Positions 17,292 through 42,389 of a DNA stretch of 64,000 nt are shown here, piece after piece. The stretch is taken from the NCBI GenBank assembly GCA_029061605.1, contig JAIDRT010000011.1:43374-107373 (forward strand), read 5' to 3'. Under the pieces are notes generated by a model, which was given only the letters and a program-made list of their open reading frames with translations, made no database searches and was not told where the DNA came from. Source of the DNA: Clostridia bacterium. GTDB taxonomy: Bacteria; Bacillota; Clostridia; Christensenellales; UBA3700. A program made the translations under genes and the position numbers. Position 1 is the first letter of the stretch, and every line of letters begins with the position of its first letter.

Positions 17292-17431
17292 TAGATTCTT
17301 CGACTACACTGCGTTTCGCTCAGAATGACGAATCCACATTATGTCCTTTTAATTTTACTGTTGAGATTTCTCCACTTCACTTCGTTTCGGTCGAAATGAC
17401 GCTGCACCTGTCACCTCGTACATCAATGACG
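17292..17431. repeat. REP-like unit cluster
   Basis: Units are 17292-17330 TAGATTCTTCGACTACACTGCGTTTCGCTCAGAATGACG, 17363-17401 GAGATTTCTCCACTTCACTTCGTTTCGGTCGAAATGACG and 17410-17431 GTCACCTCGTACATCAATGACG. Confidence 0.8.
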
Positions 17432-24971: not shown

Positions 24972-25096
24972 ATTCTGAGCGAAACATAACGCCGTAAAAT
25001 CTATTGTCATTTCGACCAAAGCGTAGCGTCGTGGAGAAATCTCAACATATTAAAAAATATACGGATAGAGACCTCTCCACTTCAGTCAAGGTGACG
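24972..25096. repeat. REP-like unit cluster
   Basis: Units are 24972-25001 (short form), 25006-25043 GTCATTTCGACCAAAGCGTAGCGTCGTGGAGAAATCTC and 25068-25096 GAGACCTCTCCACTTCAGTCAAGGTGACG. Confidence 0.8.
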
Positions 25097-35033: not shown

Positions 35034-38000
35034 TTACTTCTTGTTTCTCATAGCGCGCTGCTCTTTGAGAAGATCTTGATACCGCTCGATTTGGTCTTCT
35101 CTCAAATCAATCATATTCCTTGCTACTTTGCAAGACTGCGCGTCATCAACTACGACTTCTGTCTCCTTTACCTTGACTTTTGTTCCGTCATTTGTCGCGT
35201 CTCTTCTGATGTCCTTCAAATACTCGTCTTCCATCTTAAAGAGCGCTACCGTAGTGTCTTTCTTTATCGTCAACTTGATAAGCGGATTGACGCTCGACTG
35301 ACCTAAGAGTATGAAGTAAGTCGACTTCTTCTCTTTACACTTGTCTTTCGTCAACGCGTATTCTCTTAGGCTGTCAAAGTACTTTTTCTGTTGCTTAGAC
35401 AGTCTTGCGTACGCTTCGTCAAGTGTAAGTCTCGGAGCCCTTTCCTTTGGCGTCTTTACAGGTGCGGTTACTTTTACTTCTTTCTCAATTACCTTTTCTA
35501 CCACTTTCTCTACAGGTACTTCGACTATTTTCTCTACCTCGACAGGAACTTCTACCTTGACTTCTTTCTCTACTACTTTTTCTACTTCTACTGGCACCTC
35601 AACGACTTTTTCCACTATCTTTTCGACAGGCACTTCTTTCTCAATTATCTGCGCTTGAGGTTGAGTTGTTGACAATTCCAAGATTTTTTCCATTAGTTTT
35701 TCTTGGTTTTGCATCAAGTTTTCCTGCGTCTTCATCATCTGCTTTATTGTTTCGTCATTAGCAAGCGTTGCCACTACTTCTTTCTCGACGATTTTCTCGG
35801 CAGGCTGATCCGCCATTTTCTTCATCAACAATTCTTGATTATGAGCAAGGTCTTCTTGCGTCTTCATTATCTGTTTGATAATTTCGTCATTATTCGAAGC
35901 CTGTTGAGGCAACATCTGTTGCATACCAGGTAACATTGCCGTAACTGTCTCGGAGATAAGTCCTCTCATTTCTTCGACGCTTATGCCGGATTGCGCGTAA
36001 GCGTATCCGCCCTGCGGCATTCCCTGTCCCATATTGCCGCCTGCATTTCCGCCCATCATACTCATAAACATCATTTGCATATTTTCGTCGCGCTTTCTTG
36101 CCTCTTCTTCTCTCTTTCTATCCTCTACGTCTGCCTTATTGCGCTCGTACTCGTCGCGCAACTCCTCGGCGTATATCAACGACTTGTTATACTTGCTCTT
36201 TGCTATTATCATAAATACGATACTCAATACCGCCAAGCCCATCAATACGCACGCTATCGCAGTCCAGCCTGCCGTTGCAAGTCCCAAGAACGCTCCTGCA
36301 TAATACGTCTTGTATTTGCTCTCCGCCATTCTCTTATTCTGCTTGCTCTTGGACAAATAGCCAAAGCCTTTGCTTGCAAATATTAGTATCAATATTATGG
36401 ATATTATACTTGCTATTATCTGCCACAGCGGTATCTCTTTGAGTTTTTGCAATATCTCGTCAAGTGTTCCGCCACTATTGTTGCCGCTACCTGGGTTATC
36501 TCCGCTAGGCGTATTATTGTCTCCGCTATTGCTTGGCAAATCGGGATCAGTCTGCGGATAAGACGGATTGCTTGGAGAATTTGGATCGTACAACTCTTCA
36601 TTGCCTGTTACGCTGAATTCCTTCCAAGCCGTCTCTATCGTGCCGTCGGCAAATATAAAGTTGTTCAGTTGGTCATCCTTTATCTTGCCTCTTATTCTAT
36701 ACGTCTTTCCTGCAACCAATTCGTTATACGCTACGACGTTATCGTCAGCGTCTACAATCTCATATTCTACTCCGTTGATTTGTCCATATTTCAACTTGAG
36801 CGTAGGCGGCTTGATATTGTCGTTCCACTCTACCGCTATTTGCGCTTTGACTATCGCGTAGTCAAATTCGTAATCGCCATCTATTTGGTATCTGTCTATA
36901 TATGCATTCTTTAGACTTATCTCAACTCTGTAATTTCCAACTTCCGTAGGCGCGGTGGCAAGTCTCGTATATCCGTCGTAATAAGTCAAGTCAAAAGCAG
37001 TCGTCGGCAATGCTCCGTTTGCCACTGCGAGTTTTGCGTGTCTAGGATTGGTGTTGTATTCCATAGTCGCGTTTTCAAGAGATACGCTAACTTTCGTCAA
37101 GTCTTTACCTACTCTGAATATCTTGGATTGCGCCGAAGGGTCGTCAAGCAAATAATTGAGCGTATCTTGCAATACAGGCTTTGCGATATAGAACTTGGCT
37201 TGGCTCTCCGACCAAATTATATCTTCTTTCCTAATCGGCGTATCACTCTTTATATTGCCCATTGAGTCACATTCGTAATAGTCATACGTAACCACGTCGC
37301 CGTCGGCATTGGGATCTCTTAACACCGGAATATCAAATGCCTTGCCATTGCTATCCGTAGTGGAAGAGTTCTTCCAACTTGACGCCTGTATCTCCGCCTT
37401 GACTATATTCCAACTCTTATTCCACTCAAAATCTTCGTTTAAATCGATATACGACGTCGGGTCGTTTTCGTCCGGCAGTACGTAGTTATCCTCGTATCCG
37501 CTTGCCAAGGCAAAAGTAACGTATGCCGAACCGCTCGTGCCAACCGTCGTACCGGTGTAATTGCCATAAGTCGGTATAAGTCCTTCCGGCAAGGTCTTGG
37601 GATCAAGTATCGCTTGGCTTCCGTCAACTTTGTTATACGGCAACTGTCCGTCATATTGCCACTTGACATTAGATAAATCAAACTTAGCCTTCTCAATTGT
37701 CCACTTGATAGAATACTCTTTGATTGTACCTTCTGGCGTCTTTACTCTTGCTGTAGTTATATACTCGCCTGCGTTGGTGCCTTTTGCGTTTTTATATCCA
37801 TTGATATACCCCTCTACACTATAACTTGTATCAACTGAATATCCGCTGGGCAAACTTGTTGTTAAAGAATGTTCTTTACCGCTATAAACCAATTTTATTT
37901 TATCAAATTCTGGAGTAGTCGCAATATCTATATCAAAATACATTGACGTCTTTATAACTCCATTGATACGTAACTGCCAAAAGATTGAAGAATTTACGTC

Positions 38001-40337
38001 TACTTTCTCTTGAATATTAAACGTGATATCAGTCCAAGTTGCCTTATAGTTGGTATAGTCACTGCTCCCATCTATATTTTTTACCTTAACGATCAACTTG
38101 TAATTTGCCGGTATCTCAACTTTAGACAATTGCAATTTGATTGTAAAATCAGCCATTTGGGAGTCTAGTACAAAGTCAGAATAAACCAAAGTCTCCGATT
38201 CGCTTCCCACTCGCTGTACGTAAAAATCTAATAAAACACTTTCTCCTGTACGCGGGCGAGATTGCACTTGCACATATAAATCAAGGTCTTCTTCAAGCAT
38301 ACTGTCAATTATAGTATCAGATTCTATTTTCAATTCAAGTGGCAAAGGCTCTATTTTAAACTCTAATCTCACACTGTCTTTCGCAACTGTTCCATCTTCA
38401 AATCTCCATTGAGTATTAACATTGTCCGTCAATCTCAATTCCAACTCATACGTACCCGCTTGCGCGACTTTAACAGTCACCGTTCCGTCTGTTGTTACGT
38501 TTTTGTTTAATTCATATTTACCAATAAATTCAGTAGGTATGTGTACTGTATAATCTCCCTTATAATCTCCGCCAAGTTCAAGTTCATAAGTTCTAGTAGA
38601 GCCATTATAGTTATACCAACTCTTTGGGAAGAATGTTGGCAAGGGAATATTTGTCTCAGTCTTTATAAAGTTCTTTGACAGAGCAACGTTGTCAGCCAAG
38701 GAATAATTGGAATTACTCAACGAAGTTATCGTGACAGTATAATCTCCAATTTTTTTAGGCATAGTCGTAGAGTCATATTCAGTATTGTTTCTGCCAGTAT
38801 ATTTTACATTGATATTCACAGTATCTTTGACGCCGCCGGCATTTGAACAAATCTCAGTATCAATCAGCGACGGTATTGCAACGCCCTCATCGTTATTACT
38901 CCAAGTAACGCTTAGCGGTTTTGGAGTAATCTTAAACTCAAATACTCTCGTATAATCATCCTCGCCTTTACTTGTATCAGGTTCCCCCGCAAAAACAGCG
39001 CCTGTTGCAATTGTGTCATCATTAAGTTTTACTGTAACCGCGTGAGTTTTAGCGCTTTTCATATCTGTAGGACAACTCAAAGCCGACATATAATTTGTGT
39101 TATACCAATTCGTTTTAGTTGTATCTGAGATATAGGATAGATCTTGAATCTCTCCGTTGTATTGACTTTCTACGTCGGACGGCTCTGAAAAGCCCACTCT
39201 ATCTACGACTTTTTTTAAATTGAGATGGAATGCAGGTCGCACGCCATTGCTGTAAATAGGTCCAACATTTCCTACTCCCATACCTGTGCCTCCTGCGGCC
39301 AATACATACACACAATCGTAATTAAAATAACGAGCCGACCTCAACCACACAGTCTGACTGTTAGAGCGTTGATTATTGGATAACTTCCACATTCCTTCAA
39401 CTCCGTTTACACCTGTTTCAGCAATACTTGGGAGCCATATTGAGTCAGCGCCCCAAGCCTTATAGCCAGTAGTATCTACTGTAGCGTCAGTCAAAAAATT
39501 GGCAGCAGTACCGTTTCCGCCCAAATCTAATGCGTCGTTATTATTATTGTAACCATAAGAAGTCCTGTATTCGCTGGACGTGACGTGAGTCAATGCTTGT
39601 TGATTGCGTTGCCAACTCACATTGTTAGGTACTTCTATAAATTCCTTTATGCTACCCGCTACGCCCTGCGCTTTGGTCATAGTATATATAGCCCAATCAC
39701 TACTTGCGCTTTGAGCAACACTAGTAAGCGAACTTGCATTATACGCTGCGGCATAACCGCCGCCATTATTGAGTACGCTCGCGCGCATCCAACTTGTTCC
39801 GTACATAGGGCTAGGATATTTTCCTTTACTGTTAGTTACGCTTGTATTGAAATTAGCGCTCCTAACTTTATTCTCACTGGAATTAGCCAGCCAAAAAGTT
39901 AATATTGGCTCTCCACTACTATTTGTAGATAAGTATGTGGGCATCCATTTTAATCCGTTTATCTCTACAACAAGATCCTTGCCATTATTTATACTGTTTC
40001 CATTATTTCTAATATCATTTGAAGTCTTAGTCAATGCTAAAGTAGCAATATCTGACAATTTCATATTTTTTTGTCCGGTTATCGCTTCAATCATATCAAA
40101 GAATACCGCACCGTTGAATACTTTTCCTGTGCCAGTCGTATCCCCCTCATAGCCATCCAACAACAGTTCTCCCAAATTTTTTGCTTGAGCGCTGGAAACT
40201 TCTCCATTTGTTATCGTAAGCGCTTCTGTTGATTTACACTTTAAAGATATTACTCCTATGCAACTTATCAACATTGCTAGCGCAATGATAGTCACTAGGC
40301 ATACTTTTTGTACTCTTATTTGTTTGCTAAAATTCAT
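35034..40337 (-). CDS. Giant surface protein (1767 aa): signal peptide, WLRS...VRPAFHLNL (DUF6273-like) domain, Ig-like repeats, membrane-spanning segment(s), ~390-aa charged repeat-rich tail
   Basis: The ORF is uninterrupted. I place the start at ATG 40337, 6 nt after AAGAGGTG (the track start is GTG 40346). Hydrophobic segments are IIASIISIILILIFA and AGAFLGLATAGWTAIACVLMGLAVLSIVFMIIA near aa 1300-1380. The tail has a duplicated NDE(I/T)IKQ(I/M)MKTQE(D/N)L motif and VEKxVExPVE tandem repeats. Confidence 0.85.
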   Translation of the reverse strand: MNFSKQIRVQKVCLVTIIALAMLISCIGVISLKCKSTEALTITNGEVSSAQAKNLGELLLDGYEGDTTGTGKVFNGAVFFDMIEAITGQKNMKLSDIATLALTKTSNDIRNNGNSINNGKDLVVEINGLKWMPTYLSTNSSGEPILTFWLANSSENKVRSANFNTSVTNSKGKYPSPMYGTSWMRASVLNNGGGYAAAYNASSLTSVAQSASSDWAIYTMTKAQGVAGSIKEFIEVPNNVSWQRNQQALTHVTSSEYRTSYGYNNNNDALDLGGNGTAANFLTDATVDTTGYKAWGADSIWLPSIAETGVNGVEGMWKLSNNQRSNSQTVWLRSARYFNYDCVYVLAAGGTGMGVGNVGPIYSNGVRPAFHLNLKKVVDRVGFSEPSDVESQYNGEIQDLSYISDTTKTNWYNTNYMSALSCPTDMKSAKTHAVTVKLNDDTIATGAVFAGEPDTSKGEDDYTRVFEFKITPKPLSVTWSNNDEGVAIPSLIDTEICSNAGGVKDTVNINVKYTGRNNTEYDSTTMPKKIGDYTVTITSLSNSNYSLADNVALSKNFIKTETNIPLPTFFPKSWYNYNGSTRTYELELGGDYKGDYTVHIPTEFIGKYELNKNVTTDGTVTVKVAQAGTYELELRLTDNVNTQWRFEDGTVAKDSVRLEFKIEPLPLELKIESDTIIDSMLEEDLDLYVQVQSRPRTGESVLLDFYVQRVGSESETLVYSDFVLDSQMADFTIKLQLSKVEIPANYKLIVKVKNIDGSSDYTNYKATWTDITFNIQEKVDVNSSIFWQLRINGVIKTSMYFDIDIATTPEFDKIKLVYSGKEHSLTTSLPSGYSVDTSYSVEGYINGYKNAKGTNAGEYITTARVKTPEGTIKEYSIKWTIEKAKFDLSNVKWQYDGQLPYNKVDGSQAILDPKTLPEGLIPTYGNYTGTTVGTSGSAYVTFALASGYEDNYVLPDENDPTSYIDLNEDFEWNKSWNIVKAEIQASSWKNSSTTDSNGKAFDIPVLRDPNADGDVVTYDYYECDSMGNIKSDTPIRKEDIIWSESQAKFYIAKPVLQDTLNYLLDDPSAQSKIFRVGKDLTKVSVSLENATMEYNTNPRHAKLAVANGALPTTAFDLTYYDGYTRLATAPTEVGNYRVEISLKNAYIDRYQIDGDYEFDYAIVKAQIAVEWNDNIKPPTLKLKYGQINGVEYEIVDADDNVVAYNELVAGKTYRIRGKIKDDQLNNFIFADGTIETAWKEFSVTGNEELYDPNSPSNPSYPQTDPDLPSNSGDNNTPSGDNPGSGNNSGGTLDEILQKLKEIPLWQIIASIISIILILIFASKGFGYLSKSKQNKRMAESKYKTYYAGAFLGLATAGWTAIACVLMGLAVLSIVFMIIAKSKYNKSLIYAEELRDEYERNKADVEDRKREEEARKRDENMQMMFMSMMGGNAGGNMGQGMPQGGYAYAQSGISVEEMRGLISETVTAMLPGMQQMLPQQASNNDEIIKQIMKTQEDLAHNQELLMKKMADQPAEKIVEKEVVATLANDETIKQMMKTQENLMQNQEKLMEKILELSTTQPQAQIIEKEVPVEKIVEKVVEVPVEVEKVVEKEVKVEVPVEVEKIVEVPVEKVVEKVIEKEVKVTAPVKTPKERAPRLTLDEAYARLSKQQKKYFDSLREYALTKDKCKEKKSTYFILLGQSSVNPLIKLTIKKDTTVALFKMEDEYLKDIRRDATNDGTKVKVKETEVVVDDAQSCKVARNMIDLREDQIERYQDLLKEQRAMRNKK

Positions 40338-40443
40338 TGTCGACACCTCTTTTGTCTTATATACTTTTATACAATAGGCTCTTCTAAACCAAAATTTGTA
40401 TATTTTTTTAACAACTTACAAACTTTGATTTGAGTACGAAATT

Positions 40444-40562
40444 CTAAAAAAAGTATACTTTTACTGACCCAAAAATATTGCAAATTATTGATACGCGAAG
40501 TATAATGTAATTGAAAAAATTTGCCTTTTCGCAGGCAGTCAGTAAAAGTATACTTTTTTTGG
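40444..40562 (+). promoter_or_regulatory. 25-bp inverted repeats flanking a near-consensus sigma-70 promoter
   Basis: CTAAAAAAAGTATACTTTTACTGAC (40444-40468) and GTCAGTAAAAGTATACTTTTTTTGG (40538-40562) match at 24/25 positions. Each contains the perfect palindrome AAAAGTATACTTTT. Between them lie TTGCAA (40478-40483), a 17-nt spacer and TATAAT (40501-40506) on the plus strand. Confidence 0.65.
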
Positions 40563-40609
40563 AAAAGTGAAAAATTGGCATTAAATTAGAATTTAATTGG
40601 ATAAAACGA

Positions 40610-40640
40610 ATGACACACAAGTTTGTTGCGTGTCATTTTT
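40610..40640. terminator. Rho-independent terminator-like hairpin
   Basis: ATGACACACAA-GTTTG-TTGCGTGTCAT has 11 bp with 1 mismatch. It is followed by TTTTT on the plus strand and by TTCGTTTTAT on the minus strand. Confidence 0.65.
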
Positions 40641-40666
40641 ACGGATATATTATATTACATTAGATA

Positions 40667-40799
40667 TTTTGACTTAACTACGTTTCGCTCAATATGACAT
40701 ATTATTTCATTTGACTTGGCTTCCCCTTGAGGGGAGGCTCCGCCATAGGCGGTGGTGAGGTGTTTTATGTCACCTCGAGCGTAGTTGTACGGTCTAATC
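40667..40799. repeat. REP-like cluster incl. G-rich hairpin sub-unit
   Basis: Components are 40667-40698 TTTTGACTTAACTACGTTTCGCTCAATATGAC, 40711-40762 TTGACTTGGCTTCCCCTTGAGGGGAGGCTCCGCCATAGGCGGTGGTGAGGTG and 40769-40799 GTCACCTCGAGCGTAGTTGTACGGTCTAATC. The last unit overlaps the stop codon of the next gene. Confidence 0.8.
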
Positions 40800-41001
40800 A
40801 TTGTTTAACGATCTCTGCAAAATCTTCAAAAGAATACCCTTTTCTTTTCATATCTGGGTCGGCTACGTTGAAAAAACAACTTGGTATTTCTCTCAACTTT
40901 AAATTCTTTGCAATGCAAAGCGAGCATCCCTTGTCGTGATTTGTTGGGTGCAACGGACACTTGGTATCCTTGCAGGTGCAAAACTCACTTAGATTTGACA
41001 T
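40798..41001 (-). CDS. Small cysteine-rich protein (DUF6485-like)
   Basis: 67 aa with the pattern CTC...CPLHPTNHDKGCSLC...IPSCFF. It lies 20 nt downstream of the ALDH gene. Confidence 0.6.
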   Translation of the reverse strand: MSNLSEFCTCKDTKCPLHPTNHDKGCSLCIAKNLKLREIPSCFFNVADPDMKRKGYSFEDFAEIVKQ

Positions 41002-41021
41002 AGTATTTCCTCCTGAGTTTT

Positions 41022-42389
41022 CTATTTCATAAAGAATTTTATCAATTTATAGTGCTTATCAGTATAAGGCTGATAGCGCACAGGCAAATCAAAGTAAGTC
41101 TTTTTGTCGATTATGCTCTTATAATGAGTGAAGGTATCAAAGCCTGCTTTGCCGTGATACTGCCCCATACCGCTTTGCTTGAGACCGCCAAAAGGCAAAG
41201 TCGACGACGCTATGTGCATAATCGTATCGTTGATACAGCCGCCGCCAAACTTACAACGCGACGTCACCTCGTTTTGATTTTGCTTGCTCTGCGAGAAGAA
41301 GTAAAGCGCAAGCGGCGTTGACATTGAGTTGACTTTGGCGATCGCCTCGTCTAATTCCTCAAAAGTGACGATTGGCAACACCGGTCCGAACATCTCGCAA
41401 TTCATTTCTGGACGGTCAAAATCTGAATCAAGTAAAGTCGGTTGAATTTTGAGTTTTTCCTCGTTGACTTTTCCGCCGTAGAGCAATCTGTCATTATCAA
41501 TATAATTCTTTACTTTGTCAAAGTGTTTTTGATTGATTATCTTGGGATAATTTTCATTCGTCAATGGATCTTCAGAGTATTGAATTTGTATTTGCTTTTT
41601 GAGTTCTTCCACCAACTGCGCCTTGACTGCCTTGTCGCAATATATGAAGTCAGGCGCTACGCACGTCTGTCCAGAATTGAGGAACTTGCCAAATACTATG
41701 CGCCTTGCCGCAAGCGGAATATCTGCCGTCTTGTCGACAATGCAAGGACTTTTTCCGCCCATCTCCAAAGTGATTGGCGTAAACTTTTCGGCAGCCTTTT
41801 GCATTACAATTTTGCCCACTGCCGTGCTACCGGTGTAGAAAATATAGTCAAAGTCTTGTTCCATCAAAAAGGCGTTTTCTTCCCTACCGCCGCTCACGAC
41901 TATGACCTCGTTTGTTTCAAATGTCTTTTGCACAAGTTTTTCTATTACGCAAGAAGTGTTGTGCGAATACCTGCTAGGCTTGAGAACTACGCTATTGCCT
42001 GCGGAAATCGCATCGACTAGCGGCTCTATAGAAAGCATAAACGGATAATTCCAAGGGCTCATAATGAGCACACAACCGTAAGGACACGGCGTAATCACGC
42101 TCTTTGCAGGGAATTGGAAAAACTCGCTTCTAAACTTCTTTGGTCGAGAAAACTTCTTGATATGCCTCAACATATAAGATATTTCGCAAAGTACCATTCC
42201 TATTTCAGTCGTATAACTCTCAACTTCGCTCTTGTTGAGGTCTGCTTTGAGTGCGGCAAAAATATCCTCTTTCATAAGCAGAATGTTTTGATACAACTTC
42301 TTGAGCGCCTTAATCCTCTTTTTATAATCCCAAAAAGCGCGTTCCGCCTTTTGCTTTTCTATACAAGTCAATATTTCTTCTCTTTCCAT
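41022..42389 (-). CDS. Aldehyde dehydrogenase family protein (ALDH3-type)
   Basis: Motifs are LEMGGKSPCIVD (catalytic Glu region), FLNSGQTCVAPD (catalytic Cys) and GSTAVGK. I place the start at ATG 42389, after GAGGT (track start 42404). Confidence 0.9.
   Translation of the reverse strand: MEREEILTCIEKQKAERAFWDYKKRIKALKKLYQNILLMKEDIFAALKADLNKSEVESYTTEIGMVLCEISYMLRHIKKFSRPKKFRSEFFQFPAKSVITPCPYGCVLIMSPWNYPFMLSIEPLVDAISAGNSVVLKPSRYSHNTSCVIEKLVQKTFETNEVIVVSGGREENAFLMEQDFDYIFYTGSTAVGKIVMQKAAEKFTPITLEMGGKSPCIVDKTADIPLAARRIVFGKFLNSGQTCVAPDFIYCDKAVKAQLVEELKKQIQIQYSEDPLTNENYPKIINQKHFDKVKNYIDNDRLLYGGKVNEEKLKIQPTLLDSDFDRPEMNCEMFGPVLPIVTFEELDEAIAKVNSMSTPLALYFFSQSKQNQNEVTSRCKFGGGCINDTIMHIASSTLPFGGLKQSGMGQYHGKAGFDTFTHYKSIIDKKTYFDLPVRYQPYTDKHYKLIKFFMK

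Follow-up and report, generated by a model that had tools for sequence, protein, structure and literature searches.

What is the function of a near-consensus promoter that is enclosed by two inverted repeats and directed away from the giant gene beside it? This question is raised by a short intergenic region of a Clostridia bacterium (contig JAIDRT010000011.1), lying in an analysed stretch of 64,000 nucleotides that is referred to here as the window. The initial annotation of this region, made from the sequence alone, had offered three readings, namely a small RNA (sRNA) gene, a looping pair of operators and a promoter-carrying miniature inverted-repeat transposable element (MITE), and it missed a fourth one that is backed by comparative data, the inversion of the segment between the repeats. 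In this study, we provide evidence that the region at 40442-40564 is, with high probability, an invertible promoter (inverton) gating the giant secreted-protein gene at 35034-40337. The features on which the argument turns are given below in window coordinates.

35034-40337, minus strand: giant gene, putatively the controlled gene, called as 1,767 amino acids (aa)
40338-40441, minus strand: leader that separates the switch from the giant gene, conserved in part within the family
40442-40468, no strand assigned: putative gene-side recombination site (left arm), 27 nt, from the repeat finder (inverted repeat I1, 96%)
40469-40537, plus strand: invertible cassette, the 69 nt between the arms, found as the same cassette in 44 distinct 68/69-nt copies in both orientations
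40478-40506, plus strand: predicted sigma-70-type promoter, with the -35 element TTGCAA at 40478-40483, a 17-nt spacer and the -10 element TATAAT at 40501-40506
40512-40537, minus strand (opposite to the promoter): terminator-like hairpin TGCCTGCGAAAAGGCA followed by a T-run (scan site 40537-40522)
40538-40564, no strand assigned: putative terminator-side recombination site (right arm), 27 nt, from the repeat finder and the family alignment
40565-40608, plus strand: conserved AT-rich 'T-flank', from 58 aligned flanks with the motif in most
40609-40642, no strand assigned: predicted intrinsic terminator (A-run, 12-bp stem, T-run), from the repeat finder (I7) and the terminator scan

The inverted arms described initially are real, and the repeat finder extended each of them by two bases, to 27 nt with 26 of 27 positions complementary. 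The left arm reads TTCTAAAAAAAGT-AT-ACTTTTACTGAC, with a palindrome spanning 40449-40462 around the central AT of 40455-40456, and the right arm reads GTCAGTAAAAGT-AT-ACTTTTTTTGGAA, with its palindrome at 40544-40557 and the central AT at 40550-40551; the intervening DNA measures 69 nt. As first reported, the same 14-bp palindrome, AAAAGTATACTTTT, is exact in both arms, with the two starts 95 bp apart, and it resembles the site of a dimeric protein. No third exact occurrence of this 14-mer was found within the 64-kb window, where one further site, at 6665, matches with at most two mismatches. An inverted repeat of 26/27 within 100 bp is expected by chance an estimated ~1e-4 times or fewer per window, and the supposition that the arms recur elsewhere proved right, a 20-mer of the arm being present in more than 112 stretches of other genomes among the matches listed; thus the inverted repeat is not a product of chance.

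Within the cassette the order is promoter, A-run and GC hairpin, and the window carries it in what we call the OFF orientation. The TTGCAA-17-TATAAT promoter is the top promoter-like site of the region (10 of 12 positions matched), and its placement between the arms, on the plus strand and directed away from the giant gene, is as originally read. Beyond the right arm stands the terminator hairpin already recognised, at 40609-40637, with a T-run on the plus strand to ~40642 and a weaker T-run on the minus strand; the terminator scan reported this hairpin on the minus strand only, and 'bidirectional' is a reading of the sequence by eye. No credible open reading frame (ORF) was found from promoter to terminator, either by reading the sequence or in the ORF list, as the initial annotation had stated, and the start of the giant gene, which it had placed ~100 bp to the left, lies 105 bp from the left arm.

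The arm 20-mer, GTCAGTAAAAGTATACTTTT, was searched in one genome per species, with loci (numbered here with the prefix L) taken as 8-kb tiles, and the copy numbers are lower bounds. The stretches that carry it come from ~15 metagenome-assembled genomes (MAGs) labelled Christensenellaceae, Christensenella or Clostridia, a single MAG giving up to 26 tiles, and the family has at least 10-26 such switches per genome. At up to three mismatches most arm matches pair as inverted repeats, and 70 pairs enclose the same promoter cassette. Most unpaired arms sit at contig or tile edges with the partner beyond the sequence, and in the five internal ones that were read (L009, L021, L027, L045, L066) the partner arm has a diverged inner half. 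The palindrome centres are 94/95 bp apart in 45 pairs, 105/106 bp in 20 and 134-136 bp in 4, distances that equal 9, 10 and 13 helical turns. Alignment of the 44 distinct 68/69-nt copies showed that the arms and the TTGCAA and TATAAT hexamers are invariant or nearly so, while the spacer and the hairpin stem vary, and near-invariant hexamers around a varying spacer suggest that the promoter is under selection. The cassette hairpin shows compensatory changes (pair 85:94 is CG in 37 copies, UA in 6 and UG in 1; pair 86:93 is UA in 29, CG in 7 and UG in 6), and the 79/80-nt class of cassettes has a longer hairpin stem.

The surroundings of the cassette are likewise shared. With the promoter set rightwards, its downstream side carries in most copies the AT-rich T-flank and then a hairpin with a T-run. 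The T-flank, with the family consensus TGAAAAATyyGCATTAAATTAGAATTTTAnTTGAATAAAA, is ~40 nt long and always lies on the side opposite the giant gene, and the flank terminator hairpin occurs at the matching position in every family member with unrelated stem sequences. On the upstream side most copies have a very long ORF directed away from the element, whose basic-then-hydrophobic N-terminus looks like a signal peptide; these giant ORFs span 1,000-1,950 aa where complete and are often preceded by a conserved ~110-nt leader. In a subclass (L070:5332-5491, L082:4135-4296, L024:1028-1188 and L018:249-409) the arms, GTCAGAAAAAGTATACTTTTTCTGAC, are fully palindromic and lie 134-136 bp from each other, and the switches of L070 and L082 have an ABC-transporter operon and IMPDH as neighbours in place of a giant gene, thus the same recombinase may control functions beyond the giant genes.

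The evidence that the cassette inverts comes from comparison of these loci. In a minority of copies, including L040, L057, L073, L074, L076, L091, L097 and L114, the promoter is reversed relative to the flanks, so that it faces the leader or giant gene and turns its back on the terminator flank. Among 62 complete switches, 50 are OFF (towards the terminator, like the window), 9 are ON (towards the giant gene) and 3 are unclear, and the leader-type pattern retrieved 13 further loci from Joint Genome Institute (JGI) metagenomes, 11 OFF and 2 ON, among which no ON/OFF pair is orthologous. Four comparisons of MAG loci bring the two orientations together at corresponding places. Between L031 and L114, five minus-strand blocks (84-90%) cover ~6 kb of flank, while the match of the 124-nt element (89.5%) is on the plus strand; L069 and L091 match on the minus strand in both flanks and on the plus strand in the element (90%); and flanks and element are likewise on opposite strands when L040 is compared with L095 and with L049. 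This difference in strand between flanks and element shows that the cassette has inverted between orthologous loci. A further comparison, of L130 (ON) with L049 (OFF), has a homologous flank on the gene side only (953 nt at 84%). An orthologue of the window locus itself, L131, from a related organism in the JGI metagenomes (86-87% identical on the aldehyde dehydrogenase side), is also OFF.

Sequence variants of the arms locate the crossover. The outer-half variant AAAGGTATAC lies in the promoter-upstream arm in ~18 OFF copies carrying it and in the downstream arm in the ON copies L040, L074, L091 and L097, and this swap of arm with orientation means that the outer half remains with the gene-side flank. 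The inner-half variant GTCAAG, by contrast, is promoter-downstream in both L041 (OFF) and L114 (ON), thus the inner half travels with the cassette. The opposite behaviour of outer and inner variants places strand exchange between -3 and +7 around the central AT of GTATAC, an interval of ~10 bp.

These results suggest the following mechanism. Each 27-nt arm would consist of two half-sites around the central AT in GTATAC, and a recombinase encoded elsewhere would bind and pair the two sites, which are 95 bp or about nine helical turns apart from centre to centre; strand exchange near the central AT would then flip the intervening cassette. In the OFF state, as in the window, the promoter would fire rightwards through the T-flank into the terminator, giving a ~125-nt transcript ending at 40609-40642; the cassette hairpin with its T-run and the flank terminator would jointly keep transcription of the convergent Aldedh-DUF6485 operon from running on into the giant gene. 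With the cassette flipped to the ON state, as modelled, the promoter would point leftwards, and its transcript would reach the giant gene by way of the arm and a ~155-nt 5' untranslated region that includes the leader. As each family switch precedes a paralogous giant protein and most are OFF, the outcome would be phase or antigenic variation of the cell surface, with surface exposure of the giant proteins being assumed. The 95-bp spacing may be near the physical lower limit for synapsis, and the segment may be one of the smallest natural invertible ones. More broadly, and more tentatively, we propose a Christensenellaceae surface-variation system, a picture that is plausible though short of probable, in which at least 20 giant secreted-protein genes per genome would each stand behind a minimal flip cassette of promoter and opposing terminator with sites 95 bp apart, all served by one remote recombinase, and in which the T-flank would be an accessory or architectural site enabling the tight loop.

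Several points weigh against an invertible promoter at this locus. The promoter, the terminators and the transcripts are predictions at consensus level, and both orientations were seen only across different species-level MAGs or at paralogous loci. A flipped copy of the window locus was not found, including within one sample, by exact-protein look-ups with DUF6485, the giant protein and the 48-aa ORF; beyond the source contig, the 123.8-kb metagenome contig ERZ14208416 NODE_30, these look-ups returned L002, from a strain with 98% identity and an equally oriented switch side, as well as two short contigs ending before the switch. L002 (ERZ14208425 NODE_5946) ends at window position 40468, the inner edge of the left arm, which fits a graph break at a repeat and is uninformative at 5x coverage. 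Short-read assemblers can also mis-orient DNA between inverted repeats. This is unlikely to be the cause here, because the 27-nt arms are shorter than the usual final k-mer, the orientation counts depart strongly from 50:50 and the behaviour of the arm variants is coherent. The conservation of the T-flank is unexplained by the switch model as such; the T-flank could be a recombinase accessory site or the body of the OFF-state transcript, or it could be a weak outward promoter, TTGTGA-16-TAGAAT being present in many copies. To these is added the matter of the enzyme, since no recombinase was found among the 25 of 55 Pfam families listed for 36 window proteins, in the ~7.5 kb further along the contig, which hold only a V-ATPase operon, or in ~125 switch-bearing stretches except L104, a locus from a different MAG in which the link between enzyme and site is one of adjacency only.

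L104 is the one lead to the recombinase. It encodes a 213-aa small serine recombinase (PF00239; L104:458-1099) whose start lies 134 nt from an element with the same core, the arms of which are near-perfect 26-bp palindromes of 12+2+12 bp, GTCAGGAAAAGT-AT-ACTTTTCCTGAC, and the enclosed promoter is directed at the recombinase gene. Relatives of this enzyme (60-69% identical) also adjoin promoters inside inverted repeats, with a different repeat sequence. Membership of the L104 enzyme in the Mpi family was considered and rejected, with a score of 38.7 bits against the NCBIfam Mpi model NF009949, whose cut-off is 272, and a match covering residues 3-77 only. When Hin, XerD and the L104 enzyme served as phmmer queries, the only matches among 1,211 ORFs taken from the window and the MAG tiles were L104 and one large phage-type serine recombinase in L058, and phmmer found no recombinase in the 13 JGI loci. 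The L058 gene (L058:6570-8000), which has Resolvase, Recombinase and Zn_ribbon_recom domains, is 6.5 kb away from a switch arm at the contig start in MAG MGBC165376; it probably belongs to a mobile element and is not the invertase. Separately, at L119-L125, small serine recombinase (resolvase) genes (P0002, P0008, P0018) each have upstream a promoter within inverted repeats of the AAAAAGTAGAGAwTTCyTGAC type; in L119-L123 these genes diverge from an operon that encodes a Peptidase_M73-like protein together with one exceeding 1,100 aa, and L119-L125 look like a related switch family with an adjacent invertase gene. The P0002 resolvase-adjacent locus has the same orientation in all four of four samples. 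On balance we lean towards a serine-type recombinase for the window family. A tyrosine-type enzyme is possible, if rather doubtful; its 6-bp GTATAC overlap would fit the mapped crossover equally well as a Hin-type serine geometry.

How do the three readings offered initially compare with an invertible promoter? An sRNA gene, in which the plus strand would yield a non-coding RNA of ~125-130 nt that is functional in its own right and the repeats would be incidental or regulate that RNA, draws on real features: a strong promoter in the OFF orientation is followed after ~125 nt by a terminator, no ORF intervenes, the family conserves the 40 nt that would become the RNA body, and most copies are assembled in this orientation. 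This part of the proposal stands, but a functional RNA does not follow from it, since Rfam gave no match at E<=5 over 39500-42000 apart from chance-level miRNA matches, and the predicted fold is no better than that of shuffled sequence (z=-1.6). The conserved part is AT-rich without a covarying helix, covariation being confined to the small cassette hairpin, and such helices as exist are terminators of unrelated sequence. Moreover, promoter and terminator form a unit in one orientation only, and neither the inverted cassettes nor the giant gene at every copy is explained, whereas a by-product transcript of the OFF state accounts for the same facts; we thus regard an sRNA gene as quite unlikely. 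Still less likely, in our view, is a pair of operators through which a dimeric helix-turn-helix (HTH) repressor loops the 95 bp and controls the giant gene or the internal promoter without any rearrangement. The regulon-like recurrence of two identical 14-bp palindromes at many promoters, the phasing of their centres in whole helical turns across the family and the MarR-type regulator encoded 2 kb away would suit such a repressor, yet a recombinase dimer, itself an HTH protein, would bind and synapse the palindromes, so that the same features and phasing are expected under inversion. Static looping cannot give two cassette orientations at orthologous loci; it leaves the separation of outer-half from inner-half variants unexplained, and a regulon needs no 27-nt conserved inverted arms with asymmetric outer and inner halves.

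A MITE of 123 bp, with terminal inverted repeats and an internal outward promoter, would have spread by transposition. The element is indeed small, multicopy (more than 100 copies among the matches listed) and bounded by terminal repeats, and it breaks many short-read contigs, but the marks of transposition are missing. There are no target-site duplications, and the bases outside the arms are conserved in the family and differ between left and right (cgaa|...|tgtg); conservation reaches 50-130 nt past both arms in a polarity that does not change, the leader and giant gene standing across the element from the flank and terminator. Nearly all of the 62 orientable complete copies have a family gene or its leader on one side, which ties the element to one gene family, orthologous loci differ by inversion rather than by presence or absence, and no transposase was seen in ~125 loci. 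A MITE is therefore extremely unlikely, and the two orientations at orthologous loci, together with the behaviour of the arm variants, argue for the invertible promoter.

The product of the gene under this putative control begins with a signal peptide or membrane anchor, is variable in its body and ends in a C-terminus conserved in the family; a ribosome-binding site, AAGAGG, lies upstream of the ATG of the gene at 40337. Annotation gave only weak Pfam matches (DUF6273, MBG, Flg_new) and nothing in NCBIfam. In seven complete paralogues or orthologues the C-terminus (...NPLVKLTIKKDTTVALFKMEDEYLKDIRRDA...REDQIERYQDLLKEQRAMRNKK) is strongly shared and the bodies are variable. A lipobox-like motif is present in just 22 of 44 N-termini of family giant proteins, thus lipoprotein status is not claimed. 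The conserved portions of the leader at 40338-40441 are CCAAAATTTGTAT...ACAAACTTTGATTT. A leader hairpin (CAAAGTTTGTA...TACAAATTTTG) was seen in the subset with the conserved ~110-nt leader (the window, L007, L030, L093, L110 and others), and the palindrome ATAGAATTTTCTAT is also present in leaders of other copies; the conserved leader may be a second regulatory layer or an anti-termination element for very long genes. To the right of the switch, the minus strand carries a 48-aa ORF followed by DUF6485, aldehyde dehydrogenase, a MarR-type regulator and LuxS.

Other features of the window stand apart from the switch. At 4116-8828 on the minus strand lies a gene for a second very large secreted protein (1,570 aa), whose C-terminus is rich in glycine (GGTGGLGGDGGDGG...) and which has a single weak Flg_new repeat; the gene was considered as a member of the switch family and rejected, being unrelated to the family and having no switch upstream. 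Repetitive extragenic palindromic (REP)-like intergenic repeats (GAGATTTCTCC...TCGCTCGAAATGAC, plus short GC hairpins) occur at gene ends across the window, and also adjoin many switch loci in the MAGs. The 48-aa 'gene' at 40655-40801 lies wholly inside such repeats and is probably not a real gene. The repeats were recorded at these positions:

~626-680, 3791-3850, 17316-17400, 25006-25045, 40655-40800, 50459, 56653, 60055 and 63570: REP-like repeats

Christensenellaceae are prominent, health-associated gut bacteria and among the most heritable families, and their interaction with the host is poorly understood. The kind of switch described here is well known, but its family in Christensenellaceae seems to be undescribed: in the literature searched we found no paper that links Christensenellaceae to invertons or names the motif, and large automated surveys may list such loci without describing them. 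Noteworthy are the very short, helically phased segment, the internally palindromic sites with a symmetric central dinucleotide, the combination of a promoter and an opposing terminator with a conserved flank and a terminator read as bidirectional, and the size of a putative regulon whose members all stand before giant proteins. If the proposal is true, dealings with host immunity, phages and neighbouring microbes would be shaped to a major extent by dozens of giant, phase-variable surface proteins, and the breakage of Christensenellaceae MAGs at switch sites would be explained. The shared 27-nt site would allow a single pattern to find every switch, making the ON/OFF repertoire measurable in existing metagenomes. 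A short phased segment with a symmetric core would also be a compact test case for recombinase synapsis on tightly bent DNA, with potential use as a compact genetic flip-switch part.

Comparison with known inversion systems places this family among several relatives in design. The Hin/Gin/Cin serine invertases act on 26-bp hix/gix sites, and the arms described here are similar in being near-palindromic crossover sites with two 12-bp half-sites, A-tracts and a central dinucleotide, most closely in L104, where the site is exactly 12+2+12 bp and a serine recombinase is adjacent. They differ from hix/gix in the symmetric central AT, in a segment ~10 times shorter, in that no enhancer or Fis-type element is known and in that the recombinase gene is not adjacent to the switch in the window family. 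As in fimS of Escherichia coli, a promoter on an invertible segment would drive an adjacent surface-structure gene in one orientation only, but fimS is a single locus with 9-bp repeats, a 314-bp segment and the tyrosine recombinases FimB and FimE encoded alongside. Clostridioides difficile has RecV-dependent inversion switches at cwpV, flgB and cmrRST, which share with the present family phase-variable inversion in Clostridia, in one case for a large cell-wall protein, and a remote recombinase (putatively so here). In cwpV, however, it is a leader terminator that switches and the promoter lies outside, and the RecV system differs further in repeats that vary between sites, a tyrosine enzyme and the lack of a shared-site multigene family.

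Two further systems, which together with the RecV switches are the closest likenesses, are found outside Clostridia. In Mycoplasma penetrans each gene of the mpl (P35) lipoprotein family reportedly has its own invertible promoter, and the two systems are alike in coupling a multigene family of surface proteins (presumed surface proteins here) to a private, very short promoter inversion per gene, with combinatorial ON/OFF antigenic variation. The mpl switches have 12-bp repeats, a ~135-bp segment and tyrosine recombinases, whereas the family described here has 27-nt arms with a perfect palindrome, a flank terminator and proteins of 1,000-1,950 aa. In Bacteroides fragilis the invertible promoters of capsular polysaccharides are said to be served by a master serine invertase, Mpi. 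Like that system, the present one consists of many promoters per genome in inverted repeats of shared sequence, mostly OFF, in a gut commensal and putatively directed at its surface, with a recombinase that would act from a remote locus. Unlike it, the present family belongs to another phylum with another repeat sequence, its site centres are 95 bp apart instead of roughly 170-230 bp, and its targets are single giant protein genes where those of B. fragilis are polysaccharide operons.

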